64,000 bases of DNA from Macrostomum lignano (taxonomy: Eukaryota). The stretch spans positions 1 through 64,000 of the forward strand of contig NIVC01003924.1 of assembly GCA_002269645.1 (NCBI GenBank), given 5' to 3'. Below, piece by piece: positions 7,327-59,669 of this stretch. Numbering within the stretch: position 1 is the first letter of the stretch; each line of letters starts with the position of its first letter. A program made the translations under genes and the position numbers. Under the pieces are notes generated by a model. The model saw only the letters and a program-made list of their open reading frames with translations, searched no databases and was not told the DNA's origin.

Positions 7327-7340
7327 CAGTCGCAATTTAC

Positions 7341-16300: not shown

Positions 16301-16351
16301 ATGATGAAGGAGCAAAATGTTTCTCCAGAAGTTTTAGCACCTCTGACTCAC

Positions 16352-17218: not shown

Positions 17219-19189
17219 TTGCTGGACAGCTGCAAAAACGAATAATGATGAGGGAGAGATTTTGGAGTTGGATTCAACAAACGGAGCTCAATTTTTTTAT
17301 TAACTGAGGCTGCTTTGAGCAGTTTCGCAAGCAAGCCAATGCACTGGAAGAGCAGGTGCCTGGCCGCTAACTGTGGCCTGCAATTTTCAATTTTATTAGC
17401 AATGGCTCCTGACTCGATTTCGAGCCACACAAGCTGCTCAATCTCTGTCTCGTCCTAATAAATGCTATTTTTTGAAGTGCTTCTTCCGTTGGAGAGTAAT
17501 CTGCATAATCTGCAGACAGCGCGGGAAATTTGGTCTGCAAAATTAAAATAATGACCATTTCCATGCTCCCTGCTATCTCTCTCTCTGCGTGTGCAAGCGA
17601 AGTCGTTAGCACCCTTTTTTATCCCAACAACTGGGGGATAATTGTTCCGGAAGCAGAGCGTGTTGCAGATTCCCCCCTCCCCACCCCCATCCAGCCGCAG
17701 AGCCTCCCAGCTTATTTTGCATTTTTCGCATTCAGAAAAAATCCTGGCAGTAAAATTTGGGAGGCTGATTTCTTGTCAAAAATTGGAACACCAAATCCGC
17801 TGGCTGATTCTCCCCCGAGCCTCATCAGGCAGTCCAGGCTCCCAACTAGCTGTTCGATTCGACCCAGAATTCAACCCGAAGTCACCTTTTCTTCGTTGTC
17901 CTTTGCAGCCAGCTCCTAGCGAGGGGTAAACTATTTAAGCTATTTATCGCATGGAGAGCACAAAGCGTCTTGTTATTCGCGACAAAAGAATTCGCGGCTG
18001 GCGAAAAGTCGAGAAGACGCATTCCAAAATGAAGCGAACTCGCACAGGAGTGGCCGCAGCTCCCCGAACAGCTGACTCCGACAGACACTGCCAGATTTTC
18101 AAAAAGTTGTTCTATGAAAATCTGGGCACACCCCCAACCCTGACCGGGCGCAGCTGACAGATGGGACCTCGGCGTGATGCAGACTCTCCGCCGCCTCATC
18201 ATGCCTCTCCTAAGCCTGTCCCACCCTCGGGCTGTCCTGTTCCGCATTGGAAAGATTTTACTGTTGCGCAATGCTTTCGTACAGCTGATTGCATGCAATG
18301 GCGGCATATACAGTTCTGCATAGACTGCTTGGTTAGAGGATTTTAACGATTTCGTTTAAACAAACAGACTACTGCTTCGTCCTGTAGGGTAGAGAATGCT
18401 AATTCTTATCGGGCAGTGGGGCCTAAGCTTTGTTTAAATTAATTACATACCTTTTATTAGGTTGGAACTCAGGGGCGGGGGACTCATCTGCATGGCTAGC
18501 CCCATCAGAAGTCACTCAGTTGTATTAGGCTAATCGAAATTTTTTTTCTCTTTTTTACCGATAGCTGCAGCTCTCAATGCGTTGGCTTATCAGCTCGTTC
18601 TCATCTGTCCGCTCCGCCTTGTGGCGCTTCTCATTCCAGTCCTTTGCTGGCAATATCTTCATCATCTCAAGCAGCCCTTGTCGTTTGAGAGCTCAGTTGC
18701 TATCATTATCTCTATATAGATTTTTGCCTTCTATATTGGCACAGAGACTACACAGATGTCCACGCAGAGCTGATCTGCGGCAGCACTTGTTAGGCCCGAG
18801 ACTCTCTGTGCCCGTGTTTTATCCGAATTCCACTTTTTCACTTTGGTACCCCATCAATCGTTAATGACATCCTCAGTGGGTTAGGAAAAACTGAAAAAAA
18901 ATCGATCAGAGATATTTGACTGGCTGATGAAGTCCGTTCGACAAACATATGCGGAATTTGTCAAAGGAAATGATTCTGCGTTGTCTTTGTCTTGGCATTG
19001 TTCTTTTTAGACTTGAAAGGAAATAGGATAGGGAGTGCAACTACAGACAGAGTCTGCTTGAGGAAAAGCAATTTCAGGTATTTCACATGGACAGCTGAAG
19101 CAGAAGGGACGCTACTCTCAATTTTCTTAGAAATGACTAGCAATCAGCGCCCCCGTTGGAGAGGCAACAAAGAATGGAATACAAATATT

Positions 19190-19660
19190 CTGATCTCTCA
19201 GCAATTTCCCCGTAAGCCTCGACATCTCAGCGATTCCCCCAGTAAGCCTTGAAATCTCAGCGATTCCCCCCTGTAAGCCTTGACATCTCAGCGATTCCCC
19301 CAGTAAGCCTTGACATCTCAGCGATTCCCCCCTGTAAGCCTTGTCATCTCAGCGATTCCCCCAGTAAGCCTTGACATCTCAGCAATCCCCCAGTAAGCCT
19401 TGACATCTCAGCGATTCCCCCAGTAAGCCTTGACATCTCAGCAATTCCCCCAGTAAGCCTTGACATCTCAGCGATTCCCCCAGTAAGCCTTGACATCTCA
19501 GCAATTCCCCCAGTAAGCCTTGACATCTCAGCAATCCCCCAGTAAGCCTTGACATCTCAGCAATCCCCCGTAAGCCTCAACATCTCAGCTATTCCCCCCG
19601 TAAGCCTCAACATCTCAGCAATTCCCCCAGTAAGCCTTGACATCTCAGCAATTCCCCCGA
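19190..19660. repeat. ~30-bp minisatellite
   Basis: GACATCTCAGCGATTCCCCCAGTAAGCCTT units. Confidence 0.93.

Positions 19661-20214: not shown

Positions 20215-20259
<45 letters not shown>
20215..20259. repeat. (AACT)n microsatellite, left part of the insertion target
   Basis: Perfect AACT run abutting the left TIR. Confidence 0.95.
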
Positions 20260-20260
<1 letters not shown>

Positions 20261-20363
20261 GTAGTATACGTTTTTTTGACACAAAGCCGATTTCCTTATG
20301 GCGAAATACATAGTAAGTACAGGCCCAAAAAAATGGCAGAGTCCGAAATTTCATGTGCACGCA
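20260..20363 (+). repeat. Left terminal inverted repeat (104 bp)
   Basis: Reverse complement of 34885-34988; first 84 bp identical, 4 mismatches in the inner 20 bp. Confidence 0.97.
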
Positions 20364-20409
20364 GTCTGAAATTCCATGTGCACGCAGTCTGAAATTCCAA
20401 GTGCACGCT
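20341..20409 (+). repeat. Subterminal 23-bp tandem repeat x3 (GTCTGAAATTCCATGTGCACGCA)
   Basis: Three near-identical units, each with a GTGCAC palindrome; the first unit is the inner end of the TIR. Confidence 0.9.
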
Positions 20410-20884
20410 AAATATCTTTTACGCAACGTGATTATTCAGACGAATTGCATATCCACCTGTCCAAAATACAAGTAACCGATTCTAGCAATGGTGACACAAA
20501 CACACTTCAAAGGATTCCATTCAAGACAAATTTACTCCAAAGCTATTCACACATTTCAAGTGTTTTTGAAATATTGAAAACTTGTGAATATTATCACCCT
20601 TTTGAAGAAAGATAGTAAATGATCTATTCTTGAGTGCCTATAGAATTTTTGCACCAACTTGAGCAGATGGTTTACAGATACTATGTCAACAACTGCGTCA
20701 ACATGCTTCTTCTTTATACTATATATATATACGAACACACTGACACAGAAAATATTAAATAACTTAAACCAAGTTTACATTATACTACTTGTTCAACTAT
20801 ACTTACATCTTAAGTGAAATGAAGCGATCACGTCAGCAGGAATTGGCCGAGCGCTATGTTAAACAAGGTAAGATAATCACCTAC

Positions 20885-21115
20885 TCTAGTTCAGTTTTCT
20901 TTTTTAGATTGACTGTTCGCTATAGTTTAGTTTCTAGATTGATTGTTAGTTCGGTTTCTGTTTAGACCGATCCTCTGTTTGTTCAGTCTCTAGATTGATT
21001 TTCTGCTAGTTCGGTTTCTGTTTAGACTAATACTCTGCTAGTTCAGAATTTCTAGATTGATTGTCTGCTAGTTCGGTTTCTGTTTAGACTGATTCTCTGC
21101 TAGTTCAGTTTCTAT
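20885..21115 (+). repeat. Degenerate ~30/60-bp tandem repeat in the element's left arm
   Basis: Recurring CTAGTTCGGTTTCTGTTTAGAC and CTAGTTCAG-TTTCTAGATTGATT units. Confidence 0.75.
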
Positions 21116-21128
21116 ATACATTGTATAC

Positions 21129-21680
21129 ATGCACCTATACCAAATTTCCCTCATCTTATCCATTATTATAGCATTCAAGAATGGTTTCTTCACGCGGCCA
21201 CCTCCAGATCAGTGCAAACGCATTTGCCACGACACCACCACATCCAATTCTGCTGCAAGAGCATCATATTCTACATCTCTCGCCAGAGTAACCTCGATTC
21301 ATGTCGAGAGACAGACAACTGAGCTAGATCGCATTTACACAAGAACTGATGTTATTCAGTCAATTAGGCAGCAATCGAACCCACGACCAACTGACCAACT
21401 GCAGTATGCACCACCACCACCATCACCAACCAGCTACAATGACCCAACAAAGCAAACTTGCAGTAAGCCTACAAGTACCAAACCAACGACAGCAACTGAA
21501 ACACCATCATCATCAATTGCTATTTCTACCCAAGTTCAACCGCTGCTAAACTCGCCAATTATTGTACAGAAGGACATCAAGTCTGTAAAAGTCTCTCAAA
21601 TGAGCACAGGCTTCTACCAAGTAGAATTACCAAAGACCTGTAATACAACTCAAGTATTTGAATATTGGGACCTATCTTAA
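21129..21680 (+). CDS. Hypothetical 183-aa protein with hydrophobic N-terminus and Thr/Ser/Pro-rich middle
   Basis: ATG-TAA ORF; MHLYQISLILSIIIAF is signal-peptide-like; mucin-like central region; no family recognised. Confidence 0.5.
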   Translation: MHLYQISLILSIIIAFKNGFFTRPPPDQCKRICHDTTTSNSAARASYSTSLARVTSIHVERQTTELDRIYTRTDVIQSIRQQSNPRPTDQLQYAPPPPSPTSYNDPTKQTCSKPTSTKPTTATETPSSSIAISTQVQPLLNSPIIVQKDIKSVKVSQMSTGFYQVELPKTCNTTQVFEYWDLS

Positions 21681-21930
21681 AAAGACATTTTTTCTAACTC
21701 TTCATAAAATTTTGCCAGCAATGTGTCCAAGTAATTGCTCTTTTAGTATATATCAAACAAGTCTGTAATCAATAATATAATCTCTATAAATTCATTATTC
21801 TAAAAAATTCTTTCAATTTTATTCGCCATTTATTGAAATTATTTAATTCAATATAAAGTCAATATCTTGTACAGTCATCATTAAACAAAAATTATTAATC
21901 CATGCAAATAATTTTTTTTTCATACGTTTC

Positions 21931-22625
21931 TTTAGCCATGGTCTGGCTTTTGCCTCAACAGTATGATTTAGCTGTGGTCCAGCTTTTGCCTCAACAGTAT
22001 GATTTAGCTGTGGTCCAGCTTTTGCCTCAACAGTTTTTAGCCGTGGTCCGGCTTTTTTGCCTCAGCAGTATGATTTAGCTGTGGTCTAGCTTAAAACTGC
22101 ATCAACAGTGATTTAGCTATAGTCCAGGCTTAACTACCTCAACGATGATTTAGCTATAGTCAAGGCTTAACTGTCTCAACAGTAATTTTAGCTGTTGTCC
22201 AGACTTAACTGCCTCAACAGTGATTTTAGCTGTGGTCCAGGCAACTGTCTCAACAGGGATTTAGCTGTAGTCCGATTAGCTTAACTGTCCAGTTATTTAG
22301 CTGTGAGCCAAGCAGCAGCACCCGTCTCAACAGTGAGAATTAGCTATGGTCAGCTTTACCTCAACTGTGATTTGGCTGCTGTGGTCTAGCATAACTGACT
22401 CAACAGTAATTTTAGCTGTAGTCGTCCAGCTTAACCACCCGTCCAGTTTTATAACCATGGTCCAGCTTAACCACCGTCTCAACGTACAGCGATTTAGTCG
22501 TGGTCCAGCTTAACCGTCTCAACGTACAGTGATTTAGCCATGGGTCTAGTAGCAATTAACCGTATCAATAGTGATTTAGCCGTGGTCCAGCTTAACTGTC
22601 TCAACACAGTAATTTAGCTTAGTCC
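21931..22625 (+). repeat. Degenerate ~36-40-bp tandem array (~18 units) inside the element
   Basis: Consensus approximately GATTTAGCTGTGGTCCAGCTTAACTGTCTCAACAGT, with indels between units. Confidence 0.85.
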
Positions 22626-23329
22626 AAACAGCATTTGTGTGTCAACTGCACTGACTGCATGCGGTTATAGCAGCGGCAGTCATTATAGTCCCAACAAGCT
22701 GCGCGTCGCAGCATGATAGTGTAACTCTATATAGCTTCTGCTCAATATAGGACTGCAAAAGCTGAGTTACAACTATACCTTTTTCTGTTTGAAAAGTAAC
22801 ACTCTATATATAGGTTACTCAAGCAATCTCTTGTCACCGTGCGAGCTAAAAAATTCCAACATGCAAGCAAAACTTTCAATAAATTAATTTCATAGCACCG
22901 CGTGCAGCTTATTTTTACTCTAAAATCCAAGATTGCTAATTTTTCAAGTCGCAAAATATTTTAATTACATTCTACTTGAGAACAAAACCAATCTAATGAA
23001 GCAGCAACCAGCAGTCTTCTTATTAAACGCTTGCCATCGTGTTACTCTTGCAAATTTATAACTAGTGTGCCTAAGATTCATTAATTTTATTGTATAAAAT
23101 ATCAACCTACATTTGCGTAAAATTAGACCTAATCATGCAACCCACCCTAGAAACTTATGCCACCTTTGGCACGCAACAATGTCTTAATCAGCACGCAACA
23201 ATTAAATTTGTTTACTAGTTCACAAACAGCATGCAAAGCTTGCTATAAATACAAGACCCGAAATGGTCAATTTTTCATGAGCTCAATCATTACAGCAAAA
23301 GAAATACTATATTCAATTGCTTGTAAGAC

Positions 23330-24528
23330 ATGGCAGCTTGCATCAAGACGGAGTCAATTGTACGCTCCGACTCGAGTCCGATTTTTTACGTTGGAGAGCA
23401 GTCTACAACCACGACTGGTTCGTCCTGCCAGTTTCGATCTATTGCGTGGAAACCATCAATCGAGTGTACAAAATGGTACCCAATTATATTGCAAACCAAG
23501 GCTCCAATGGAGCTTTTTCGTGGAATCGCAGAAAGGCCAGAGCTCGATCATCCGTCTTGCAGACACGACTCTCGCGACGCAGTAAGTGTCCAATTTCATC
23601 CAGACAGCTGCGATAAGGAACTCTTCCACTCTCTCCGGTGAGCACCATATTAAATTTATACAATTAATTTTAGGAAACTATATTCATAATTTATATAATG
23701 TTTTGCAGTCAAGTCGAAAAAGGTCTATCGGTCAAGTTGAACGAGATTCAAGATGCTCGACCCTTGGCACGACTAACAAAACCAGCTCATCAGCATGCTA
23801 ACGACGTCCTCGAGTTTGTGCCTCAACAATGGCTGGCTATAAAGCCTGCTTACCCTTGTGCCACAATCAGGATCAGCAACGATCATCCACACGGGAAGGA
23901 GGTGTCCATTTCCGATTTCAAAGGTGTCAGCGGTACCTACCAAATGACAGTGCAAGCAACGAGCTTGTATTGTCCAAAAGGCTGCCTCGTCTGGCGCATT
24001 ACATTCGCTGTGCGCTCTCTGACACTCATAGAATCTTCCGACAACATGTTGCAGCGCCTCGACATGTTCAAGGGAGTGCTTGCACACCTACCCGCGACCA
24101 AGTCAGCAATTAGAAGCAGGAGTCCGTCCCCAACATCTACCTGTGAGCAAGAAGAAGCAAATGAACAAAGCCTGCAGAATTCAAGCCAGGTGACACCTGC
24201 CAAGTCACCTGCAAAGCGTCGGTCTACCACCACCGTATCGAAGAAGTCGACTACATCGAATGCAGCGCCAGCCTCTATTGAACCGCCGCCTAAAAAGCAA
24301 GTTCGAAAACGCAGCGGTGCAAAACAGCAAAACAATTCTGCCGAAGCTGGTGCAGATGGCACAGACTGGGTGGAGGCTCCACCAGCAAAGATCTTGGTGA
24401 GTACACCTGCCTCTGGAACCAGGGTAGCGTCCAAGGAGACAGCATTTTTAAAGCGTGCTGCTGCGGACGCTACTACAGCTAGCGTGTCTTCATCGGACGA
24501 CTCGTACAGCAGCTCTGATGATGAGTAA
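23330..24528 (+). CDS. Two-exon gene (23330-23637 + 23709-24528, ~375 aa); putative ssDNA-binding (OB-fold-like) protein
   Basis: A 71-bp AT-rich GTGAG...TTTTGCAG intron joins ORFs 23330-23641 and 23698-24528 in frame (HSLR|QVEKGL). Beta-rich core, then a low-complexity basic linker and acidic tail SSSDDSYSSSDDE. The function is inference. Confidence 0.6.
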
Positions 24529-24738
24529 CAAAATTTTTGACTAATTTTATCCAAGTTTTAACTAACTTATTCCACTATATTTATCAAATTTTTGGCTAGG
24601 GAAATATTATTTTTTAGGGAAAAGCTCAAAACATTTTTTGCTACTCCTTGTACGCTAACCAGGTTTTGTAATTTAATATTAGAATTTACGATAGTATAGT
24701 CATGTTTAACTTTTCTTATTATTTATTTTCCGTTTTAG

Positions 24739-25296
24739 CGACTTGTCCTATTAATAGTTACTGCGAGTCTGAAGCTGCACCCGTTTGAAAAATTTGATTT
24801 AAAGCAGACCAAACAGAAGCTACAGACCAGAAACCGGTTTTGCAAACTATTCCTAAGCCGACCAACAATGCTAAAGACAATTTATTCAAATGCTAAAATC
24901 CAACTTTATCCAGCAGGAAAACTAACTATATATGGCTGTAAATCAAATTCTCAGATAGTCTCAGTTTTACGATTTATCAACGACACTATTAATTGTGTAG
25001 ATTTTGATTCAGTAAAAATTCAGAGCAGTACCTATGTCGGCTTTATTGGTCATCTTTGGCCAAAATTCGGTTTCTCTAGTCTAAAAAGATATGCAGGCTA
25101 CTATTCGAATTATCTGGTTGGATACGATGCAGAAAATTTCCCACAAGCAGTTTCTGTTAGATCAGCATCAAAACCAAGGCTTTTTTGTAACATATTTTTT
25201 TCGAAAAAGTTTGTTATTATGGGCGTTCAAAACACTCATGAATTGAATAATATTCTTAACCATGTCAAGGATTTTTTAATCTCTGTTAATAACTAA
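24739..25296 (+). CDS. Divergent TATA-box-binding protein (TBP)-like protein
   Basis: Two TBP half-repeats: LLIVTASLKL..EKFDLK (cf. NIVSTVNLGCKLDLK), KIQLYPAGKLTIYGCKS (cf. TALIFSSGKMVCTGAKS), VKIQS (cf. FKIQN), YDAENFPQAVSVRSASKPRLFCNIFFSKKFVIMG (cf. [32 protein letters not shown]). The frame is open from 24739 after a TTTTAG acceptor; the first ATG is at 24868. Confidence 0.8.
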   Translation, partial: RLVLLIVTASLKLHPFEKFDLKQTKQKLQTRNRFCKLFLSRPTMLKTIYSNAKIQLYPAGKLTIYGCKSNSQIVSVLRFINDTINCVDFDSVKIQSSTYVGFIGHLWPKFGFSSLKRYAGYYSNYLVGYDAENFPQAVSVRSASKPRLFCNIFFSKKFVIMGVQNTHELNNILNHVKDFLISVNN

Positions 25297-25519
25297 ACTT
25301 AACAAGTAAACAATTGCTGTCAAATCGCAGTTGCGATGCATTCTTTTACAAACATTTTGTCTTTTTTTATTTATTTACCAATTGTTTTCTCTAATAGTAA
25401 ACGTGTCAGCTATACCTATAACTAACCAAATCATCATTTTTCTTACAGCCGCAAATGACAAACCGGATCATCTATTAATATTATGCTCGATACGCTCGTT
25501 GTCGAGCTAGGTGCACACA

Positions 25520-26233
25520 ATGCCGCGTGCACAATGCCAAATCTGCAGAAAAAAGTTCAGTAATCAAGCCGAGCTGCATGCTCACTCGCATGGTGCTTGT
25601 TTTTCACCGCAACGATTACTGACCGGATCGCTGCAAAACCTGATCGAAAACCCACCAGATGGGTGGTCCATCGCTTTGCGCGAGTCAGCTCATCGTGGTC
25701 GGGTAAATTTTGTCGAATTTACTCCCACTCTTGAACAACAAGGCAACAGCTCTGGCGAGTTACTTCCTGGCGAGTTGATTGCGTCTTTAAGAGAACCAAT
25801 ATTTAAAATATTGGAAAAAATTGGCTCACCCAGTTTATTAATAAGAGTCTGCTTTCACTTGAAAGTGACACTATTTCGACCGAAAACAGCAGCAGACGAC
25901 AACGATGGCTCGAGCAGCGAAGAGATCATTTCGGTCTATTTTAATACCAACATTGCGACAATATCATTTGATGAGACGATTGCAAACAGTGACATGCTGT
26001 TATCTCCCGAGGCCTACAATGACTGGTTCGCACGCGTTATTAATCAGTTGTTAATAAAAATTGACAATTTTCAATCTCGAGGTAGTAATTGGCAATATAG
26101 AGCAATCGAGCAGCTAGACTTGATGCTCTGCGTTTATCGCAAAAGCCATGCAAGCACACTGTCAACAAATACGTCCCACGGTGGTGTGGGGGCGGGCGGC
26201 GGCAGTGGTGGTGGTGGCGGCGGTGGTGGTGGT

Positions 26234-26265
<32 letters not shown>

Positions 26266-26596
26266 GCGCGGGGAGTCCGGTCCAGTCCGGTCCGGTCCAG
26301 TCCGGTCCGGTCTGGTTAAGCAGCAATCGTTTAAAGTTCCAGTCTCAATCGGTCGCAAAGCTGGAGCAGTACTGCTTCTAAAGCCGCACAGAGCAGTTTA
26401 AAGCATCAAGACTATTTAAGAGTCTTACACAAGCGACAACTTGTGTTTTCGCGCATACAGTCCATTCGTTCTCGAAAACAGAAAGTTTTTTTTGATGCAA
26501 CAAAGAAAACTTGCACTAAGCTTCTTCGATACGAAGCGATCCTGGACAAGTTCAATTAATTCGCTACCCTTTGGACACTGGCACTTGGCTAATTAA
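25520..26596 (+). pseudogene. polB: Protein-primed family B DNA polymerase, internally deleted (N-terminal region fused out of frame to the extreme C-terminus)
   Basis: N-terminal part: C2H2-like finger CQICRKKFSNQAELHAHSH, then IDNFQSRGSNWQYRAIEQLDL and SFKVPVSIGRKAGAV, typical of Polinton pPolB N-termini. From ~26375 in another frame: KAAQSSLKHQDYLRVL...QSIRSRKQKVF, then after a 1-bp slip in a T8 run LMQQRKLALSFFDTKRSWTSSINSLPFGHW*, the typical pPolB C-terminus. No exonuclease or palm motifs are present. Confidence 0.8.
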
Positions 26597-26888
26597 TTAA
26601 CAATATGCTCTGATCTCTTTTGTTGTACAAAGTAATAGCATGCTATAGAAGACTGTAACCCATCATTAATTTTTTCATTGATCATTATTTACAATAAATA
26701 AATGATACCGGCATTCGTTTAAATTATAATTTTAGCACTTTTTTGTGTTTAATTATTTGAAAAAGTATATTTTTTATAGTTAGATTCTCAAGACTAAGCT
26801 TGTGTTTGTAGTAGACGTAAATGTAGTGCTATCGTTCATGTTTCAAGAAAAAAAACTTTTTTTTAAACTTTCAGCTACAAGAATCGAC

Positions 26889-27371
26889 ATGAATCCCGAG
26901 CAGCAGCAGCAACAACAACTAACTGATCGTAAGCTTTTAGTTGAACGTCTATACGATTCGGCAACGATTCCGACCCGAAAAACTGTCGGGTCGATCGGGT
27001 ATGATCTTTGCGCTGGCGTCGATGGTACCATTCCGGCCTACGAGTCCCGGAGTGTGCGAACCGGACTCAAAATTCGCTTACCGCCTGGTACCTATGGCAG
27101 GATAGCGGGACGTTCCAGCATGGCTCTGCACAGCTTATTTGTTGGCGGTGGCGTAATCGACCCCGACTATACTGGTGAAATCTGTATAGTCTTGTTTAAT
27201 TACAGTCCGGAAGACTTTGAGTACTATGCCGGGCTCAGTATTGCACAACTGGTTCTGGAGCAGGCCGTGCTTGCTTCAGTCTATGTGACTGAAGCAGACA
27301 ATTCGATTCGGATGATTGAGCCGCCGACCAAGCGGCGCGGCTTTGGCGGCTTTGGCAGCACTGGCCAATAA
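26889..27371 (+). CDS. dut: dUTPase (trimeric type)
   Basis: All five motifs: GYDL, GRSSMA, GVIDPDYTGE, IAQL, RGFGGFGSTG. ATG at 26889 follows a TTTCAG acceptor-like site. Confidence 0.95.
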   Translation: MNPEQQQQQQLTDRKLLVERLYDSATIPTRKTVGSIGYDLCAGVDGTIPAYESRSVRTGLKIRLPPGTYGRIAGRSSMALHSLFVGGGVIDPDYTGEICIVLFNYSPEDFEYYAGLSIAQLVLEQAVLASVYVTEADNSIRMIEPPTKRRGFGGFGSTGQ

Positions 27372-27441
27372 GTATAATAATAATAATAAACTGATTTTTT
27401 TCTTTGGTGATTGGTGCACTATGCGAGAGCTTTGTAAATAC

Positions 27442-27450
27442 TATAAGCAA
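27442..27450 (+). promoter_or_regulatory. Putative late-promoter motif TATAAGCAA (one of a recurring set)
   Basis: TATAAGC at 27442, 28605, 29648, 30043, 30879 and 32616; TATAAGT at 32264; TATAAGG at 33953; each lies upstream of a gene start in the structural module. Confidence 0.45.
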
Positions 27451-27462
27451 TTTTAAAAATTT

Positions 27463-27906
27463 ATGCCTAAAATATATGTTGTAAAAATGTCTCCAGCGAA
27501 AGATCGAGGTTTTAAAAAGAAAAAGAAGAGCATTCGTAAAAAGAAGAAATCTATTAGAAAGATTAATAAAAAGCAACAAGGTTATGGTGTCGTAAATTGG
27601 TTAATTAATCATTTACCATTTGAAGCACATTTACCCGGCGGATATCAGTTTTGTGGTCCAGGTACGCAACTGCAAGCTAGGCTAGCAAAAGGACAACGAG
27701 GAATTAATCGGCTTGACAATTTGTGCATGCTTCACGACGTGGCCTATGATAAAAATTCTGACGTGCAAGAGAGGTTAAAAGCTGATAAGCTATTAGAATC
27801 TGGTGCACGAGAGATTGCCCACGATCCGTCTACTGGTTGGAAAGAAAAACTAGCTGCGAAGTTGGTTACCAAGGTTATGCAAGTTAAGCAACGCTTTGGT
27901 GCTTGA
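27463..27906 (+). CDS. Parvovirus VP1u-like phospholipase A2 domain protein (PLA2X-type) with basic N-terminus
   Basis: HLPGGYQFCGPGT Ca-loop, RLDNLCMLHDVAY catalytic HD, and downstream RLKADKLL; Lys/Arg-rich N-terminus. Confidence 0.85.
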   Translation: MPKIYVVKMSPAKDRGFKKKKKSIRKKKKSIRKINKKQQGYGVVNWLINHLPFEAHLPGGYQFCGPGTQLQARLAKGQRGINRLDNLCMLHDVAYDKNSDVQERLKADKLLESGAREIAHDPSTGWKEKLAAKLVTKVMQVKQRFGA

Positions 27907-27908
27907 AA

Positions 27909-28598
27909 ATGCAGCAGCCATACAATATGCAACTAGCTCACGATTCTACATTTATTATTGCTGGACCTTCAAACTCGGGTAAAACTGAATGGACGTTGCG
28001 TTTGTTGACTGAACGAAAAGAATTATTTGATAAAAAACCGTGCCGTCTTGTTTGGTGCCATGGATCAAGTTTGAAACCAGACGATCAACAACGAATTAGA
28101 ACATGCTGGCAAAAAAGCGGTCTTGACCCTATTGTTTTTGTACCCGAATTCACACCACAGATGATTAATCGTTTTTTACCACACGATTTGGTTGTTGTTG
28201 ACGACTTGCAAAGCGAGATTGCTAAGTTGCCAGAATTTACTAGTATGTTTACAAAGCATGCGCATCATATCCCTTTGACTTGTCTGTACCTTTGTCAAGG
28301 TCTTTTTAACAAGTCTGATCCAGAAGCACGCATGCGAAGTTTATCAGCTAGTTATATTTGTCTAACTCGTAGTGTGCGCGATCGAACCACAGTTGAACAT
28401 CTCGGTCGACAAATGTATCCGCGTAATAGTAGGTTTCTAGTGAATGTGTATGAAGACGCAACAAATAACAAACCTTTTTCATATTTATTCATTGACCTGC
28501 GGCAAGTGACACCAGATTTTTTACGATTGAGAACAGGAATATTTTCTGGTGATGAACAAGTTGTCTATACTCGTGAATGTGATGCAAAGTTTGTGTAA
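27909..28598 (+). CDS. DNA-packaging ATPase (A32/FtsK-like)
   Basis: Walker A GPSNSGKT, Walker B VVVDDLQ, plus FTKHAHH, YLFIDLRQ and RLRTGIF motifs typical of Polinton ATPases. Confidence 0.93.
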   Translation: MQQPYNMQLAHDSTFIIAGPSNSGKTEWTLRLLTERKELFDKKPCRLVWCHGSSLKPDDQQRIRTCWQKSGLDPIVFVPEFTPQMINRFLPHDLVVVDDLQSEIAKLPEFTSMFTKHAHHIPLTCLYLCQGLFNKSDPEARMRSLSASYICLTRSVRDRTTVEHLGRQMYPRNSRFLVNVYEDATNNKPFSYLFIDLRQVTPDFLRLRTGIFSGDEQVVYTRECDAKFV

Positions 28599-28655
28599 TA
28601 TTATTATAAGCAAATTATAAACTGTTGTCAATATTAGTTTGTGTTTTATTTCAAA

Positions 28656-29645
28656 ATGAGTTTTTACGTTTTTTTGCCGTCAAACGATATCAGTTACGAA
28701 ACCAACTCGCCTAATGAATTTCGAGTGCGACTAACTGAACCAATAAATTTATTGAACGGATTCTTCGAGGTTGCACTAGTTGAATTACTGTGCCATGGAG
28801 CAATTACGACGCCAAATGCTCATCGTGAGCGTCGATTTGAAGTTCCATATTTTGCGGACATTGACTCAATAATACGATTAAAGAAAAACTATTGGGGTCG
28901 TGTTTGGGCAGAGGCAGACTTGGATGCTTACGTTTCCTGGCAACCGTCTGGTACAGATGAAAAATTTGCCTGGCTTTTACGAAATTCAGGCGAAAAAACT
29001 ATTGGATTAGAACTACCAGTTACATTTATGGACGCTTTCAAATTTGACTCTTGGAAGAAACTTTCTGGACTTGTCTCGGAAAAATTATCAAAACCTGCCG
29101 CTGGTAGTGTACAACCACCGGATGGTTCATACTTGGATTTGATAAAAAGTCTCGACAATACTCTAGCGCTAGTACCTGAGAACTATTATGTTTTTTATTG
29201 TGTTCTATCGCCTGGTGAAGCTATACGACTTGTTTCGCATGGAGACTATCTTCGAAAAACGGAAGGAGAAGTGTACATCAAAGTACACCAATATTGGTTG
29301 AGAAATCGTGTTTGGCGCATTAACAAAACCTACTTGGATGCTGTGCTACCTTCTCCGATGCCTAGTAAAACGGTTTACATGTACTGTTACACAGATATAA
29401 TCGAGTATCAAGCAGTGGGAAGTACATCAGTACCGTTGCTTCGAGTTGTGGAACTCCAACAAAAGAAAAACGGAGAACTTATACGCGATAGCAGTGCATT
29501 GCAAACACCCTACTACTTGAAAACAAATCGACAACAAATTCACGAGATTTCGATTCGACTATCGGACCAGCGCGGAAAACCGTTTAATTTTGATCCGGGA
29601 GCACACGTTGTTGTCGTACTGCATTTTAAACATAGGTCGGACTAA
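28656..29645 (+). CDS. Minor capsid protein (penton/PX-like)
   Basis: N-terminal FYVFLPSN...EFRVRL...FEVALVEL and C-terminal YCYTDIIEYQAVG..VPLLRVV...ISIRLSDQRGKPFNF...VVVLHFK. Confidence 0.85.
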   Translation: MSFYVFLPSNDISYETNSPNEFRVRLTEPINLLNGFFEVALVELLCHGAITTPNAHRERRFEVPYFADIDSIIRLKKNYWGRVWAEADLDAYVSWQPSGTDEKFAWLLRNSGEKTIGLELPVTFMDAFKFDSWKKLSGLVSEKLSKPAAGSVQPPDGSYLDLIKSLDNTLALVPENYYVFYCVLSPGEAIRLVSHGDYLRKTEGEVYIKVHQYWLRNRVWRINKTYLDAVLPSPMPSKTVYMYCYTDIIEYQAVGSTSVPLLRVVELQQKKNGELIRDSSALQTPYYLKTNRQQIHEISIRLSDQRGKPFNFDPGAHVVVVLHFKHRSD

Positions 29646-29701
29646 TTTATAAGCAAAGATTAATTGTGTAATAGAAAATTTTGTGAATTTGTTTTGTAAG
29701 A

Positions 29702-30130
29702 ATGAGCGAACTAACAGAAAAAGGAAAACAAAATGCTCGCTCATTGTGTCAGTGTGCTTTTTTACTACAAATTGTTTATCGGCTAAAGCATCCAAAGCAG
29801 AGAAAAAGTTTTTTACAAACACTTTCAGAGTCGGAGATACGATGTCTAGTAGACTTTCTGTTTAATATTATTAGTGGACGTATTAAAATTAGTAACTGTA
29901 ACAAAAGACGACTTGAGAAGCATCGCAGATATATACGCCAGCTTTTGGAACAGAAGACTCCAATTACTGCAAAAAGGAAAATACTTGTCCAACACGGAGG
30001 ATTTTTACCTTTTTTGGCTCCAATTATTGCCGCTCTACCTGCTATAAGCACTGCGCTTGGGATAACGTCTGGAGTAGTTGGTACCGCCGCGGGAGCAGCG
30101 AATTTAATACGATCAATTCAACGAAAGTAG
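29702..30130 (+). CDS. Small basic virion protein with QHGG-FLP protease-site-like motif and hydrophobic C-terminus
   Basis: LVDFLFNIISGRI...RRLEKHRRYIRQL...QHGGFLPFLAPIIAAL resembles a conserved Polinton small ORF and the adenovirus pX C-terminal segment (GGILPLLIPLIAAA). Confidence 0.7.
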   Translation: MSELTEKGKQNARSLCQCAFLLQIVYRLKHPKQRKSFLQTLSESEIRCLVDFLFNIISGRIKISNCNKRRLEKHRRYIRQLLEQKTPITAKRKILVQHGGFLPFLAPIIAALPAISTALGITSGVVGTAAGAANLIRSIQRK

Positions 30131-30140
30131 TAGGAATATA

Positions 30141-30830
30141 ATGCGAACTAACGAGAGTAGTAGTTTTCAACGAATGTATCTAGTACCTGAATCTGTGTAT
30201 CAATCTGCATGTCAAGGTGCAGAGCAAGGATCGTCACCAACTGCTGAGACACCTCGAAAAACTGAAGTTTTAGACGCACCGCAAGATGCTCTGGCAAAAA
30301 ATATGGTGGAAATGAGAGACCAAATGGATAACTTGGACAAGGAAATGGAAAAGGAGCCAAATTACACAGCTCAATTGAAACGAAGCAGATTGGAAGACAA
30401 ACTTTTAAAATTGCGCAAAGTCTATCGCACTGGAGACGAGGACAATCTGTCACTTGTTCGCAAAGGGACTACTGTAAGAAGTTCATATGCCAGCGAATCA
30501 AGGGAAATTCCTAAAGTTTTTTTACCACGTTTCGAAGCTCTCGCTCAAAACCTATTTTCGGACATGGACAAGAATGCAGAACCAATGCTGGCTAATTTGA
30601 CTGATGCCGAGATACAAGATCTCATGGAATATGTTGTTCGAGACAGACCGCTTAAGCGACACGAGACTCAACCGCCTAGTGGACTAAAAACATTTTTAGA
30701 CTTTCTTCGAAAACGTGGAATCGCAGCAAACCAAATCGGGCGTCATGTACGAAACGAGCTAATGTCTGCTCCAAAAACTGTTGCAAAGGAGGATCTTAGT
30801 CTGTTTGAAAATTATCAAACACTGAATTAA
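30141..30830 (+). CDS. Hypothetical 229-aa Polinton protein
   Basis: Clean ORF in the tightly packed gene row; N-terminal RMYLVP motif, helical and charged. Confidence 0.7.
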   Translation: MRTNESSSFQRMYLVPESVYQSACQGAEQGSSPTAETPRKTEVLDAPQDALAKNMVEMRDQMDNLDKEMEKEPNYTAQLKRSRLEDKLLKLRKVYRTGDEDNLSLVRKGTTVRSSYASESREIPKVFLPRFEALAQNLFSDMDKNAEPMLANLTDAEIQDLMEYVVRDRPLKRHETQPPSGLKTFLDFLRKRGIAANQIGRHVRNELMSAPKTVAKEDLSLFENYQTLN

Positions 30831-30942
30831 GTTGTTTTAAAATTACAGATTACGTTTTAACAAAATTGATTCGAGCACTATAAGCTTTTTAAAAAGGTTA
30901 ATTTTTTGTTTATGAAAAATATATAGTTTAATAAGACAAACC

Positions 30943-31131
30943 ATGTCATCTATCTTCCAAAAACTTTTGATTCGTCTCTGTGAGTTTTTTTGCATAAAAT
31001 CTGAATGTGTGCCGTTTCTGGGAAAGGAGCACAACGAGGATACTGACGGAGATTCGATCGAGGCTTCGTTCTTTTGTTGCAACTGTCAAACGACTAGCAT
31101 CAATCTAACTGATGATGAAGCGAGTGCGTAA
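30943..31131 (+). CDS. Small Cys-rich hypothetical protein (62 aa)
   Basis: ATG ORF preceded by TATAAGC at 30879; its end overlaps the integrase start; CCNC motif. Confidence 0.45.
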   Translation: MSSIFQKLLIRLCEFFCIKSECVPFLGKEHNEDTDGDSIEASFFCCNCQTTSINLTDDEASA

Positions 31132-32272
31132 GGAAATTGAAGAATTTTTGACGGATGCTTTTTTTAACTTGAACAGGCCTACTTCATTTAGTGGTAACAA
31201 GACTATACTTGTTCGTGAAGTACGTAAAAAGTTTCCACAGATTACGAACAAAGTTGCAAAGCGCGAAGTTGATAATTGGGTGCGATCAACAAATGAGCAT
31301 CATTTATTTCGAAAAACACGACGAAACTTTCCAACTCCAAAAATTAGTGTGCCACCAGTTGCAAAGTTTCAGTTTCAAATCGATTTGGCAGATTTACCTC
31401 AATACAAGACGGAAAATCGAGGTTATCGTTACATACTTGTTCTTATCGACTGTTTTACTAGAGTTGTACGACTAAGACCATTGCGTACAAAGAAGCCTTC
31501 AGAAGTTAGTCAAGTATTACTAGAGATTTTTCGAAGTGGTTTTAAGCCTGTTTATTTACAAGGTGATGCTGGTATGGAGTTTCTCGGAAGAGCTACACGT
31601 CAAATGCTGAAACAGGAAGGAGTTCGATTTTTTGTTAGCCAAAGCAATTACAAGGCAAGCATGGCTGAACGATTTATCCGCTCGTTAAAGGAACGTCTAT
31701 TACGATACTTTCGAGCAAAAAATTTACCTCGATGGTTTGACATTTTACCGCAATTGGAAGATAATTTCAACTCTAGTCCTCATCGATCCTTGAGTGGAGA
31801 AACACCAAAACGGGTAGAGACAGACCCGCATTTACAAGGAATTTTGTGGGACAAAATGTTTGCGAAGTCGTACACTAAAAAGAATGAGAATAAATTTAAA
31901 GTTGGTGATTGGGTTAGAATTACACGACGTCGAGGAACATTTGAAAAAGGATACACTACGACTTGGAGTAATTCAAAATATCGCATTCATCGTGTACACT
32001 TGACAGACCCGCCAATGTACGAATTAGTGGACCCTGAAGATGGATTTGAAGTGCTGAAAGGAAGGTTTAACCAAGCGGAACTAATGTTGGTAAACGAGAC
32101 AGATGAAACACCTAATGAAATTGAAAAAGTTATTGAAACTGATCGAGCGAAAAATGGAAGTCGTCTGTATCTAGTAAAATGGAAAGGTATGCCAATCTCA
32201 AGAAGTCAGTGGTTAAACGAAAATGATCTTGACGCAAAGACTGCTAAACTATTTTCTAAAGTGTATAAGTAA
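31112..32272 (+). CDS. int: rve-family (c-int) integrase with C-terminal chromodomain
   Basis: QIDLADL / LIDCFTR / QGDAGMEF / MAERFIRSLK DDE core; C-terminal EIEKVIE...LYLVKWKGMP....WL chromodomain. Confidence 0.95.
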   Translation: MMKRVRKEIEEFLTDAFFNLNRPTSFSGNKTILVREVRKKFPQITNKVAKREVDNWVRSTNEHHLFRKTRRNFPTPKISVPPVAKFQFQIDLADLPQYKTENRGYRYILVLIDCFTRVVRLRPLRTKKPSEVSQVLLEIFRSGFKPVYLQGDAGMEFLGRATRQMLKQEGVRFFVSQSNYKASMAERFIRSLKERLLRYFRAKNLPRWFDILPQLEDNFNSSPHRSLSGETPKRVETDPHLQGILWDKMFAKSYTKKNENKFKVGDWVRITRRRGTFEKGYTTTWSNSKYRIHRVHLTDPPMYELVDPEDGFEVLKGRFNQAELMLVNETDETPNEIEKVIETDRAKNGSRLYLVKWKGMPISRSQWLNENDLDAKTAKLFSKVYK

Positions 32273-32313
32273 CACATGAATTGGGATTGCATGACGAAGA
32301 GAAGACTGTTGAA

Positions 32314-32772
32314 ATGGATCCTATTTTTGCTTTTTATTCTGGTCCGAATAGATCTGCTGAAGGTGGAGGTGGATATGGCATTCCTGTTTACGAAGGTTAC
32401 GGTTTTTTGTCAAATTTGGCGGACAGATTGGTGTATCCTGTACTACGCAACGCAAAGAAAGATTTCTTGGATCGTGGTCTGGAGTATTTGAAAAGTGCGA
32501 CAGCAAAAATTGGTATGGGTCGGAAGCGTCACTTGGACACAGAATCGAGCGAAGAGATGTTTAATACAACTGCAGTTTCGAGACCAAAGCGAAGGAAAAG
32601 AACCAGTGGAGTGGCTATAAGCTTAGGAAAGAAGAAACGGCAAAAGAAACGACGAACAAGACAGTGTGGAAAGGGACGCGTGAACAAAAGAAAACGCAAG
32701 AAGACCGGTGGTATAGGAAAACGTCGAACTGCTACTGCAAGCAAGAAACTTTTTAGTCTGTTTGAAAAGTAG
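32314..32772 (+). CDS. Arg/Lys-rich core-like protein with GxG processing motifs
   Basis: GGGGYG-IPVYEGYG-FLSNLADRLVYPVL followed by a highly basic C-terminal half; directly upstream of the MCP gene. Confidence 0.7.
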   Translation: MDPIFAFYSGPNRSAEGGGGYGIPVYEGYGFLSNLADRLVYPVLRNAKKDFLDRGLEYLKSATAKIGMGRKRHLDTESSEEMFNTTAVSRPKRRKRTSGVAISLGKKKRQKKRRTRQCGKGRVNKRKRKKTGGIGKRRTATASKKLFSLFEK

Positions 32773-32773
32773 C

Positions 32774-34096
32774 ATGAACCATTTGCTTGGACCTGATATT
32801 GCTGCTCTTAAAAGTGAATTGTCGCTATTTGATCAAAGTCCTGTTCAGTTTAGTGTTTTGGATAATCGATATACTAACATTCAACCGCAACATGGTATTA
32901 CAAAAGGATCACCTATCGAATTTGAAGTTGTGCCTGCAGGCGATTTGTATTTGGATCTACAAGAAACTGTGCTCACGGTATGCTTCAGCGTTAGTGATAG
33001 TGAAGGTGAACCTATAGATGCAACGAAAAATTTTGTTTGTTTGAATAATTTGGTTATTGGAACATTGTTTGAGGACGTTCAATTTACTATTGGCGATACT
33101 GTAGTTGAAGGTGGTAGTTTTATGTATCCATACAAGGCTATGCTTCTTACATTACTGGAATATGGACATACAGCTCAGAAGGCTGGTTTACTGCCGTGGG
33201 GGTTTTACAAGGATACAGCTGGTAAAATGAATGCAACAAGTGAAAACGATGGACGAACAAAGAGGCAGGCGCTCATTGCTAACAATAGGCGGTGCACTGT
33301 ATCGGGGCCGTTATTCTTGGATTTGTTTCGTCAGCCTCGGTATCTACTATCAAAGACACCACTACGGATCAAGCTCATACCGGCAAAAAGTAAATTTGTC
33401 CTGAGCGGGTCAACATTAGAAGCTGGTGCGGTTTTAAAAGACTATGAGATCAAGTTTTTGCGTGCAGAACTACGATTGCGGTTTGTTCAACCCTCGCCGA
33501 GTGTTATCAGTGCACATGCTCATGGACTTAAAAGTCACAATGCATTATATCCGCACCGAAGTCTAAGCCTTGGTACGTTTACTATACCCCGAGGATCGTC
33601 TAGCCATACGCATGAAAATTTGTTTCCTAGTGGGGTACCACGGCTTTTATTGATGGCAATCGTAAGCAACAAGGCATTCAATGGAAGCATGGACACAAAT
33701 CCGTTCAACTTTGAGCATGCAAATGTGAGCAGCATTGGTGTGTTTGTGAATGGAGACTCGGTACCATCGCGTCCGCTGCAGACAAACTTTGGAGATGATT
33801 GTGTGACAGAGTATAATTTTTTGCTACAACAGCTTGGAATCTATCTACAGGGACGAGATATTGGATTTAATATGCTGGATTACGCCAATGGTTACTCAAT
33901 TTTTGCATTCAGTCTTGGAAGTGAACCTGGTGTCGGACGGGGAGTGCAACTGTATAAGGAAGGAAATGTAAAACTAGAGTTACGCTTCAATGCTGCAACT
34001 AGTACCGTGTACAACGTCATATTTGGAGGTATATTTGACAAGCAACTGCAACTGACTGAACTTCGCGACATTGTTCCTGGCACAGTATGGAAGTAA
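32774..34096 (+). CDS. Major capsid protein (double jelly-roll, PY/hexon-like)
   Basis: KSELSLFDQSPVQFSV...PIEFEV...YLDLQETVL N-terminus; LDLFRQPRYLL, FNGSMDTNPFNFEH and YANGYSIFAFSL motifs; 440 aa intact. Confidence 0.93.
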   Translation: MNHLLGPDIAALKSELSLFDQSPVQFSVLDNRYTNIQPQHGITKGSPIEFEVVPAGDLYLDLQETVLTVCFSVSDSEGEPIDATKNFVCLNNLVIGTLFEDVQFTIGDTVVEGGSFMYPYKAMLLTLLEYGHTAQKAGLLPWGFYKDTAGKMNATSENDGRTKRQALIANNRRCTVSGPLFLDLFRQPRYLLSKTPLRIKLIPAKSKFVLSGSTLEAGAVLKDYEIKFLRAELRLRFVQPSPSVISAHAHGLKSHNALYPHRSLSLGTFTIPRGSSSHTHENLFPSGVPRLLLMAIVSNKAFNGSMDTNPFNFEHANVSSIGVFVNGDSVPSRPLQTNFGDDCVTEYNFLLQQLGIYLQGRDIGFNMLDYANGYSIFAFSLGSEPGVGRGVQLYKEGNVKLELRFNAATSTVYNVIFGGIFDKQLQLTELRDIVPGTVWK

Positions 34097-34650
34097 TTGA
34101 TTCTATCCTAGATCGTGGTGTAACAGATCGCTTCCTTCGCAATGTTGTATCGAAATTGTGCGCACATTTTTTAAATGTTGTATTTCTTGGTGTTTTTCCT
34201 CAAAACTTTGTTGGTGGACTTAGACGCTTACCTTTAGACGGTAAAGACTATTTTTTTATCGTTAATACTGACGTCTCCAACCTGCCCGGAAAACATTGGG
34301 TATGCGTTTGGGTTTATGGTCATCGAGCAGGTCGCGGTAGCAAACGACTTGGTGAATATTTTGATTCTCTTGGTCTAGTACCATTGCCAAGAATAGCAAA
34401 ATGGCTAGGAAAAGAATGTGGAAATTCGAAAAATTGGTGTTATAGTCGCTTTGCTATCCAAGACCCACAGAGTGGAAGTTGTGGATTTTGGGTAATTTTT
34501 TATATTTTTCATAAGTTGACTACCAGAGGAAACCTAGAGTGTTTTATTCGAAGCGTTTTTAAACGGAATATAATTCGCACTGGTTCGTTTCGATACTTGT
34601 ATGCTAAATTACGCAATTTTGTTTTACGAGTGCTGCCTCAATATTTGTAA
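34087..34650 (+). CDS. Adenain-like (Ulp1-fold) maturation cysteine protease
   Basis: VNTD...GKHWV (His), YFDSLG (Asp), IQDPQSGSCG (Gln, Cys) catalytic residues are intact. Confidence 0.93.
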   Translation: MEVIDSILDRGVTDRFLRNVVSKLCAHFLNVVFLGVFPQNFVGGLRRLPLDGKDYFFIVNTDVSNLPGKHWVCVWVYGHRAGRGSKRLGEYFDSLGLVPLPRIAKWLGKECGNSKNWCYSRFAIQDPQSGSCGFWVIFYIFHKLTTRGNLECFIRSVFKRNIIRTGSFRYLYAKLRNFVLRVLPQYL

Positions 34651-34884
34651 ACTCGCTAATTTGTGCGTCAAATTGTGTTTGTATCTAGTTGAAATATACA
34701 ATACTGCTTGAAAAGAAGAATTTAAATGCGTTAAGTTATACGCGAAATAAGCTTTGTGTCAAATTGAATTTTGGTTGGGCTTGTAATTAGCTGCATTCAT
34801 TGCGGATAGAATTTAGGTGGATAGACAGGTGTTTGCGTAAAAGTGATTCAGCTAATTGGTTAATTCATTGCGTAAAAGCTAGTT

Positions 34885-34988
34885 TGCGTGCACGGCAAAT
34901 TTCAGACTCTGCCATTTTTTTGGGCCTGTACTTACTATGTATTTCGCCATAAGGAAATCGGCTTTGTGTCAAAAAAACGTATACTACT
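34885..34988 (-). repeat. Right terminal inverted repeat (104 bp)
   Basis: TGCGTGCAC...CGTATACTACT, inverted copy of 20260-20363. Confidence 0.97.
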
Positions 34989-35054
<66 letters not shown>

Positions 35055-59476: not shown

Positions 59477-59669
59477 TGGAGTGAAATGGTTGTTGGAATG
59501 TCGAATAGCAGTCAGCAAGCCAAAGGGTAAGAGACTTACTGAATTCCTAAATAGTTGAGATTTTAAACAATTTTTTGCTGACCTGCAGACCCTTTAGCTA
59601 AGATCACAGTGTGTTGCTACCTGCCCTTCACACCTGTTTTCCAAAGGCGTATACAGTATATGCACTCAC

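Follow-up and report, generated by a model that had tools for sequence, protein, structure and literature searches.

How can a Polinton that has lost most of its polymerase gene keep spreading in an animal genome? We met this question in Macrostomum lignano, in positions 1–64,000 of contig NIVC01003924.1 (assembly GCA_002269645.1), a stretch of 64,000 nucleotides that we call the window. It holds an element of 14,729 bp at 20260–34988, which an earlier note, made from the sequence alone, had described as a recently inserted and replication-defective relative of Polintons and adintoviruses. That note missed that the defect is fixed in a dominant and recently spreading subfamily with a stand-alone terminal-protein (TP) open reading frame (ORF), and that genes of the left arm are spliced. 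The reading that we favour, with a probability of roughly 0.6, is that the element in the window is a single, recently inserted member of a non-autonomous Polinton subfamily, which arose once via two internal deletions and later reached at least 17 sites. This subfamily, apparently complete for its virion genes, would be replicated in trans by the protein-primed DNA polymerase B (pPolB) of close relatives and inserted by its own integrase.

The ends of the element are those of a Polinton. Its terminal inverted repeats (TIRs) are 104 nt long, 96% complementary and finish in a short repeated motif, (AGT)2, read as AGTAGT at the left terminus and ACTACT at the right. A 6-bp target-site duplication (TSD), CTAACT, flanks the element on either side; it is weak taken singly, because it lies in a (CTAA)n microsatellite, which continues for about 700 bp beyond the right TSD, but the phase of the repeat is compatible with 6 bp and 19 of the 20 distinct TSDs of the family recur at both ends (see below). 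Every long ORF of the element is on the + strand. Three contigs are homologous to the site, with flanks 100%, 97% and 97% identical; in all of them the element is missing and the microsatellite uninterrupted, and the insertion is therefore haplotype-specific.

We compared the copies of the element in the assembly with the window element stretch by stretch. Three contigs (C84, C1136 and C2373) carry longer relatives, about 96% identical, with an extra 3,162–3,163 bp at 26395 and an extra 1.64 kb at 21918–21931. Their pPolB frames span 289, 1,414 and 1,415 aa, and PF03175 matches one of them. The 3,163 bp missing from the pPolB gene of the window element comprise the vOTU, the exonuclease, an endonuclease-VII-like insert and most of the palm. 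Hence, the window copy lacks the catalytically complete protein-primed PolB that its close relatives possess (PF03175, E 2.3e-19); by these relatives the family qualifies as Polinton, and the window copy is a non-autonomous derivative. The PolB gene listed in the earlier note is present as its N-terminal zinc-finger and TP part, the rest being deleted and the 3' remnant out of frame.

The deleted form dominates. Thirty contigs contain an exact match to a 35-mer that spans the junction of the pPolB deletion, and a control gave no match, while the deleted-out parts are found at 100% identity in only three contigs and elsewhere as older fragments of 95–97%. Contig counts overstate the number of sites, as the left and right TSDs are frequently swapped between contigs and the assembly mixes copies. 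Among the loci examined there are 20 distinct TSDs, 19 of them found on both left and right ends: 17 belong to the deleted form (16 on both ends), two to the longer form and one to an older rearranged form. The true numbers may be higher, because of some 70 candidates found by their termini, 40 were scored. The deleted copies are also very young: 22 of them diverge from the window element by 0–0.28% over 2.6–12.1 kb (15 by at most 0.05%), and the two subfamilies have their terminal sequence in common (99% over 171 bp). Several claims of the earlier note, i.e. near-perfect TIRs, an intact TSD, genes on one strand, a young insertion and a replication defect, are thus borne out, and the family members are not all old and degenerate, an outcome that it had named as fatal to its view. 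We rejected a targeting of microsatellites, as (CTAA)n is found at only one of the 17 sites and the TSDs have no motif in common.

One deleted insertion (C3727/C4450) contains patches of long-type alleles, at 15 of 34 and 10 of 29 substitutions. The dUTPase region (26600–27400) of the window element is divergent from the longer copy, with synonymous divergence (pS) of 0.40 vs about 0.05 elsewhere and 13% differences per 500 bp vs about 2–3%, and appears from these contrasts to be a recombinant patch. Together, these patterns fit recombination between co-replicating genomes.

What remains of the polymerase gene encodes a recognizable domain. The deletion junction follows codon 291 of the longer pPolB frame and the window ORF stops two codons later; in the longer frame come a vOTU-like Cys 296 and His 399, with exonuclease and palm motifs downstream. 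We aligned ten N-terminal regions from the same genome (omitting rows L135 and L137, which have stop codons), and the C2H2 finger, G188, S189 and W191 (G-S-x-W) are invariant. According to Krupovic and colleagues (10.1101/2024.03.18.585575), the D1/TP fold derives from the little finger of Y-family polymerases and has its linking Ser or Tyr in the loop between helix 2 and the last strand. The AlphaFold model of the retained part (mean predicted local distance difference test score 73.9, predicted template-modelling score 0.69) agrees with this fold in its order of elements: strand, strand, helix, strand, strand, helix, loop with Ser189, strand. When the model was used in a fold search, the top ten PDB rows were all Y-family polymerases (Z 5.1–7.0, root-mean-square deviation 3.0–6.4, 96–116 residues), a coherent set although Z-scores below 8 are weak taken alone. 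The N terminus of pPolB thus carries a modelled TP domain with a candidate linking residue between helix 2 and the last strand, and Ser189 is the predicted priming residue. The subfamily apparently retains the whole TP, cut about where the vOTU was proposed to cut. The best viral match of the TP part is a C2H2 protein of Drosophila-associated adintovirus 2 (E 6.5e-9), in line with the adintovirus affinity suggested in the earlier note, and a MELD virus PolB was also matched. A search of PDB sequences gave zinc-finger-level matches only and the ESM search no usable match; homolog searches found one chimeric gene model, seemingly of the same family, and separately ten matches of which about six are plausible. 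The poly-Gly linker that follows the domain, encoded by (GGC)n/(GTCCG)n at 26180–26320, varies in length (frames of 295–304 aa) and marks two sublineages.

The subfamily has also kept its integrase and putative virion genes. The integrase belongs to the rve family, as expected of a Polinton (PF00665, E 4.5e-8, 33.7 bits for a cut-off of 32.6), and has a chromodomain and the D-D-E motifs. The ATPase shows Walker A/B motifs and gave nothing significant in Pfam, and the protease has a weak match to Peptidase_C5 (PF00770, E 0.038) with His/Asp/Cys motifs present. For the candidate major capsid protein (MCP, 440 aa) we found 113 homologs, some of them fish proteins that bear the name 'F54H12.2-like', which we take to be that of Polinton capsid proteins; no relatives were found in viral and metagenome contigs, phages, PHROGs, PDB sequences or Pfam, although such blanks are not proof of absence. 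The candidate minor capsid protein (mCP) is a conserved 329-aa ORF in the expected gene block, with no match in Pfam or in any library searched. Hence, the frames listed as uninterrupted in the earlier note are indeed open for integrase, ATPase, protease, PLA2-like protein and MCP candidate, but its mCP and MCP labels have no Pfam match and are putative, resting on position, size and the name just given. Where it listed a PLA2X gene, the phospholipase A2 (PLA2) match and the pX match fall on separate ORFs (27463 and 29702). Among the copies readable in one stretch, frames are open in 13 of 16 for the integrase, 10 of 12 for the MCP, 9 of 12 for the protease, 19 of 21 for the ATPase and 20 of 20 for the mCP, and some of the broken ones may be assembly indels. 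The ratio of non-synonymous to synonymous substitution rates (dN/dS) between the window element and the longer copy is below 1 in every gene (TP 0.27, MCP 0.04, integrase 0.15, TBP 0.12). Most of this divergence probably predates the deletion, because the dead 3' remnant also looks conserved; the substitution counts of this remnant are distorted by a homopolymer frameshift, and the deleted copies are too young for a test of selection after the deletion.

To see the family in other samples, we compared the window element with the contigs of four sequencing runs (Logan; X2, X9, X17 and X19). At least half of the query words were present in 20 runs, all of one organism and from seven studies. X2 and X9 have long window-type contigs, those of X2 without differences (one, for example, of 3,577 bp). 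In X17 and X19, by contrast, the variants stand at full depth, and long-type alleles account for 23 of the 40 that were listed. Loose ends at 26395 that lead into the polymerase interior were found in three of the four runs, on both sides in X17 and X19, the two runs that show both spliced joints of the left arm (see below). Other samples therefore contain polymerase-carrying relatives, whose transcription is probable; expression is read from the spliced joints, as no run is recorded as RNA and their RNA status is a guess. The runs suggest that the deleted subfamily is absent from some samples, but only weakly, because contigs lose rare variants.

How would the deleted genome multiply? The pPolB of close polymerase-carrying relatives would copy it in trans, as a linear TIR-ended genome replicated by protein-primed synthesis, and the integrase of the subfamily would insert the product, making the 6-bp TSD. 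We favour close relatives as helpers because the termini and the TP are near-identical. The deleted genome is 4.8 kb shorter, which would explain why it outnumbers its helper (17 sites to 2): it would outcompete the complete genome like a defective-interfering or satellite genome. Allele patches such as those of C3727/C4450 would arise where the two genomes share a nucleus. More speculatively, the truncated ORF may provide a ready-made primer protein, i.e. a split TP as in adenoviruses, and the deleted genome may be packaged.

Transposition by the integrase, with DNA synthesis by the host, is the alternative with most weight, though we hold it to be rather unlikely. In its favour, the integrase frame is open in most readable copies, every site has a 6-bp TSD, and butterfly Polintons without polB stay mobile by a mechanism left open by their authors (10.1101/2025.02.07.637071). 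Against it stand the retention of protein-primed end motifs and TP and the allele patches common with polymerase-carrying lineages, and none of the three homologous contigs, which represent one locus, is an empty site with a footprint.

TP–polymerase pairs are usually specific, which counts against a more distant polymerase helper, with the deleted element supplying TP, integrase and capsid. Such a helper could be a sister Polinton family (TP region 40–56% identical), since these families have frames of 1,272–1,482 aa and similar AGTAGT ends. It could also be a family of ~8.5–9-kb elements with a pPolB, described below, which has about 50 matches at 90% identity or more and 6-bp TSDs; one whole copy has no integrase or capsid match, and one copy is inserted into a deleted element. 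However, the polymerase of this small family has no BLASTP similarity to that of the window family (best E 0.18), its ends are ACTACT instead of AGTAGT, and the same genome offers a polymerase that is 94% identical and whose element has identical termini, which makes a distant helper improbable. Finally, one or a few dead insertions might have been multiplied in appearance by duplication of host DNA, by haplotigs or by misassembled repeats. This explanation draws on the collapse of 30 contigs to 17 TSDs, with flanks duplicated and left and right TSDs swapped in several contigs, but is largely refuted by the differing flanks of these 17 TSDs, the pairing of 16 of them, the absence of the insertion from three homologous contigs and the difference-free window-type contigs of X2.

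Replication in trans by close relatives is, in turn, weakened by several points. The evidence consists of assembled contigs, with no extrachromosomal DNA, TP-linked ends or particles among it. The fold scores of the TP are low, and its retention may be due to chance, as any deletion sparing the upstream genes could leave it in place. Purifying selection probably predates the deletion and is silent on what happened afterwards. Misassembly can mimic the allele patches of C3727/C4450; the swapped TSDs show the assembly to be chimeric across copies, so that consensus artefacts could in part explain both these patches and the high identity. In addition, the spliced transcripts of X17 and X19 seem to come from relatives, which leaves expression of the deleted subfamily unsupported there.

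A bolder picture, which we regard as doubtful, is that of an endogenous animal DNA virus splitting into a cheater and a helper. The dominant genome would have a stand-alone TP, integrase and full virion set, borrow its polymerase in trans, be packaged and reinsert in the germline. It would carry an intron-bearing left arm with genes like those of nucleocytoplasmic large DNA viruses (NCLDV), i.e. a single-stranded-DNA-binding protein (SSB), a TATA-binding protein (TBP), a deoxynucleoside kinase and a dUTPase, and live beside a mirror-image polymerase-only family that borrows the integrase.

The left arm itself is a trait of the lineage, common to other Polinton families of the genome. In 12 other Polinton loci, picked by their TP region, the TBP-like gene lies upstream in 11 and exon 2 of the SSB-like gene in 8, and a dUTPase is found in 7 of 8 downstream stretches. 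The arm is thus not a set of one-off captures, which the earlier note had considered damaging to its claim of a gene set richer than that of Mavericks. The richer set stands, although it has a precedent in MELD viruses: annotations in the figure legends of PMC8502044 (and its preprint) include TBP-like and dUTPase genes. The arm is unusual for an animal Polinton. In sister families, an ORF that follows the TBP-like gene or is joined to it encodes a deoxynucleoside kinase in all three cases tested (L119:4609-5803, L127:4270-5580 and L123:5381-6549), and the window family has no kinase. In L127, TBP-like gene and kinase form a single 436-aa frame, either a fusion or a spliced read-through.

Two introns change how the arm is read. 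The ORFs that begin at 23330 and 23698 were predicted from sequence to be separated by an intron, and this was later seen as a 71-nt GT..AG joint in X17 and X19; its donor and acceptor positions are kept in all six other loci examined, and the literature searched, with incomplete coverage, gave no report of SSB-like genes of Polintons with an intron conserved in this way. The SSB-like ORF of the earlier note is consequently the second exon of a two-exon gene. Its ESM feature matches are NCLDV clusters (score 0.89–0.93), with DUF2738, DUF5871 and Pox_I3 on 10–31% of the members, families that we presume to be linked to SSBs, and we keep the SSB label as a lead only. A second joint, of 304 nt, was found in X9, X17 and X19, and X2 has neither. 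The secreted-like protein proposed at 21129 was rejected, as its hydrophobic start lies within this intron (20868–21171), spliced in three of the four runs, and is out of frame in all three longer copies. The TBP-like frame is open from 24739, behind an acceptor-like site, and may have an upstream exon, although no first exon was found in the four runs compared and a homolog search with the ORF gave none at E ≤ 0.001. Non-canonical joints were also observed at 30652/33953 (a 3.3-kb skip, in X17 and X19) and 23979/24164 (a 184-nt skip, in X9); these could be artefacts or stem from additional deleted forms. A nuclear, splicing-dependent programme of expression, richer than the intronless core reported for vertebrate Mavericks, is suggested by the conserved intron together with the TBP, SSB and kinase genes of the arm. 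The features of the element are listed in table 1.

Table 1. Features of the window element, with coordinates in the window.
Feature	Coordinates	Strand	Evidence or remark
Left TSD, 6 bp	20254..20259	.	in (CTAA)n microsatellite
Left TIR, (AGT)2 end	20260..20363	.	
Three 23-bp repeats	20340-20408	.	
ORF-A exon 1, 16 codons, basic	20819..20867	+	spliced joint 20865/21170, GT..AG, in X9, X17, X19; not X2
Intron 1, 304 nt, with 28-32-bp repeats and the 'signal peptide' of the earlier note	20868..21171	+	
ORF-A exon 2, Ser/Thr/Pro-rich, no Pfam match	21172..21680	+	open (168 aa) in 3/3 longer copies
Junction of second shared deletion (~1.64 kb of left arm kept in longer copies)	21918..21931	.	
36-40-bp tandem repeat array, copy number variable among copies	21931..22630	.	
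SSB-like gene exon 1	23330..23637	+	joint in X17, X19
Intron 2, 71 nt, phase 2	23638..23708	+	GT..AG, same position in 6/6 other loci
SSB-like gene exon 2, putative OB-fold half and disordered acidic/basic tail	23709..24528	+	ESM feature matches
TBP-like ORF	24868..25296	+	PF00352 E 2.3e-7; homologs in other families
Retained pPolB N-terminal part: C2H2 finger, TP domain, poly-Gly linker	25520..26401	+	
Junction of shared 3,163-bp pPolB deletion	26395..26396	.	
pPolB 3' remnant, out of frame	26396..26596	+	
dUTPase	26838..27371	+	Pfam E 1.5e-29
PLA2-like virion protein, basic N-terminus	27463..27906	+	PF08398 E 3.4e-9
Putative packaging ATPase	27909..28598	+	Walker A/B motifs; no significant Pfam match
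Putative minor capsid protein (penton), 329 aa	28656..29645	+	position, conservation in sister families; no library match
pX/mu-like core protein	29702..30130	+	PF05829 E 2.3e-6
Conserved 229-aa ORF	30141..30830	+	
Small Cys-rich ORF, 62 aa	30943..31131	+	
rve integrase with chromodomain, D-D-E motifs	31112..32272	+	Pfam and motifs
Putative core protein, basic, 152 aa	32314..32772	+	
Putative major capsid protein, 440 aa	32774..34096	+	113 homologs
Adenain-like cysteine protease	34087..34650	+	weak PF00770; His/Asp/Cys motifs
Right TIR	34885..34988	.	
Right TSD, 6 bp	34989..34994	.	then ~700 bp (CTAA)n

Several copies are rearranged. L089 and L090 (C4827 and C300) are an older, 8.5-kb internally deleted and inverted derivative with the TSD TATGAT, present in several duplicated contigs; two deleted-form copies have internal duplications, of ~1.8 kb in the MCP region (L091, C877) and of ~4.3 kb in the left arm (L097, C593). 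The segment lost at 21918–21931 (L075:1998-3638) is AT-rich, 1.64 kb long and has short frames on the - strand, one of which encodes a hydrophobic helix followed by basic residues; with it, the deleted subfamily may have lost a small, spliced gene for a membrane protein.

The small pPolB family came to light in the C4072/C2932 copy, whose MCP gene is interrupted, at the equivalent of window position 33858, by an element of 8,456 bp (L139:241-8696 = C4072:14540-22995). The ends of this element read ACTACT...AGTAGT, its TIRs measure 1.3 kb and its TSD 6 bp, and it encodes a pPolB (PF03175) in five pieces with intron-like gaps, dissimilar in BLASTP to that of the window family, and a weakly PC4-like ORF. 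Six core proteins of the window element have no match in it (L139, whole; L140, compared by BLAST). TIR pairs 7.2–9.1 kb apart were found in 12 contigs, nine with a pPolB match between them, and beside the matches at 90% or more there is a second group at about 69%. The family is the mirror image of the window subfamily, in that no integrase or capsid match was found in the one copy read whole.

Outside the element, the window contains two host genes, both on the - strand: a multi-exon cadherin-domain gene (7278–17287) and a family-3 (metabotropic-type) G-protein-coupled receptor gene (59617–62287). The former starts at 17220, 3,040 bp from the element, as placed by the earlier note, which gave it the narrower, putative label of protocadherin; its proximity is probably incidental, given 17 unrelated sites. 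Minisatellite and microsatellite arrays give long spurious ORFs at 11169–13421, 19196–19658, 36235–37235, 43400–47800 and 54900–56550.

One sharp deletion is the hallmark of the subfamily, whose spread was very recent and whose presence seems to vary among samples of one species. The replication and movement of Polintons have not been shown directly, and the mobilization of polB-less copies is an open question according to a 2026 preprint (10.1101/2025.02.07.637071). With the junction 35-mer, deleted genomes can be told directly from complete ones, be it as free DNA, in particles or at new insertion sites, and trans-complemented protein priming can be separated from integrase-only transposition. 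If the bolder picture of a cheater and its helper holds, the subfamily would provide a natural setting in which the replication cycle of Polintons can be studied, and a present-day model of how TP and polymerase were separated in adenoviruses.

How does this lineage compare with known systems? It is like Polintons/Mavericks and Alpha-type adintoviruses (PMC8502044) in its TIRs, 6-bp TSD, rve integrase, putative ATPase, putative adenain, capsid candidates and PLA2-like gene; the pPolB of its relatives matches PF03175, and vertebrate Mavericks most often end in AGTAGT as well (PMC8097293). The PLA2X of Alpha adintoviruses joins PLA2 to a C-terminal pX-like domain, whereas here the two matches are on separate ORFs. 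Unlike these systems, the lineage has a dominant subfamily without catalytic polymerase, SSB-like, TBP-like and dUTPase genes (with a deoxynucleoside kinase in sister families) and spliceosomal introns. Intact vertebrate Mavericks are reported to be intronless (PMC8097293), and in nematodes the core genes are intronless and the cargo intron-bearing (10.1101/2022.07.12.499685). Among the annotations of MELD viruses of non-animal eukaryotes, figure legends name TBP-like and dUTPase genes as well (PMC8502044). The stand-alone TP ORF ending before the vOTU resembles the adenovirus pTP and a polinton of the coral Stylophora, but both of these keep the polymerase gene that the window subfamily has lost (10.1101/2024.03.18.585575).

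Seen as a derivative, the subfamily recalls defective-interfering genomes and non-autonomous transposons, in which an internally deleted form keeps its cis-acting ends and outnumbers the complete one. It differs from defective-interfering genomes in that 75% of the genome, with every putative structural gene, has been kept, and the likeness to interference rests on the 17:2 ratio of sites. Kapitonov and Jurka reportedly described a non-autonomous zebrafish Polinton in 2006. We found no description of a dominant, TP-retaining and polymerase-deleted Polinton subfamily, or of the window family, in literature whose coverage was incomplete and did not extend to Repbase; the accessible parts of PMC3014272, PMC6431247, PMC4028283, 10.1101/2023.08.22.554363, 10.1101/2024.01.15.575659 and 10.1101/2022.07.12.499685 contain no such subfamily. 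The closest parallel is given by the polB-lacking Polintons of Pieris (10.1101/2025.02.07.637071), which are also TIR-flanked, near-identical copies with close relatives that have polB, and whose mobilization was left as an open question by the authors. There, the loss of polB coincides with cargo, a long interspersed nuclear element (two copies) or a long-terminal-repeat element. In contrast, the window subfamily shows a clean deletion with no cargo, occupies 17 sites against two of the longer form and has kept its TP. A preprint has thus already described mobile Polintons without polB, to which the window subfamily adds a further variant, one that is unusually clean.

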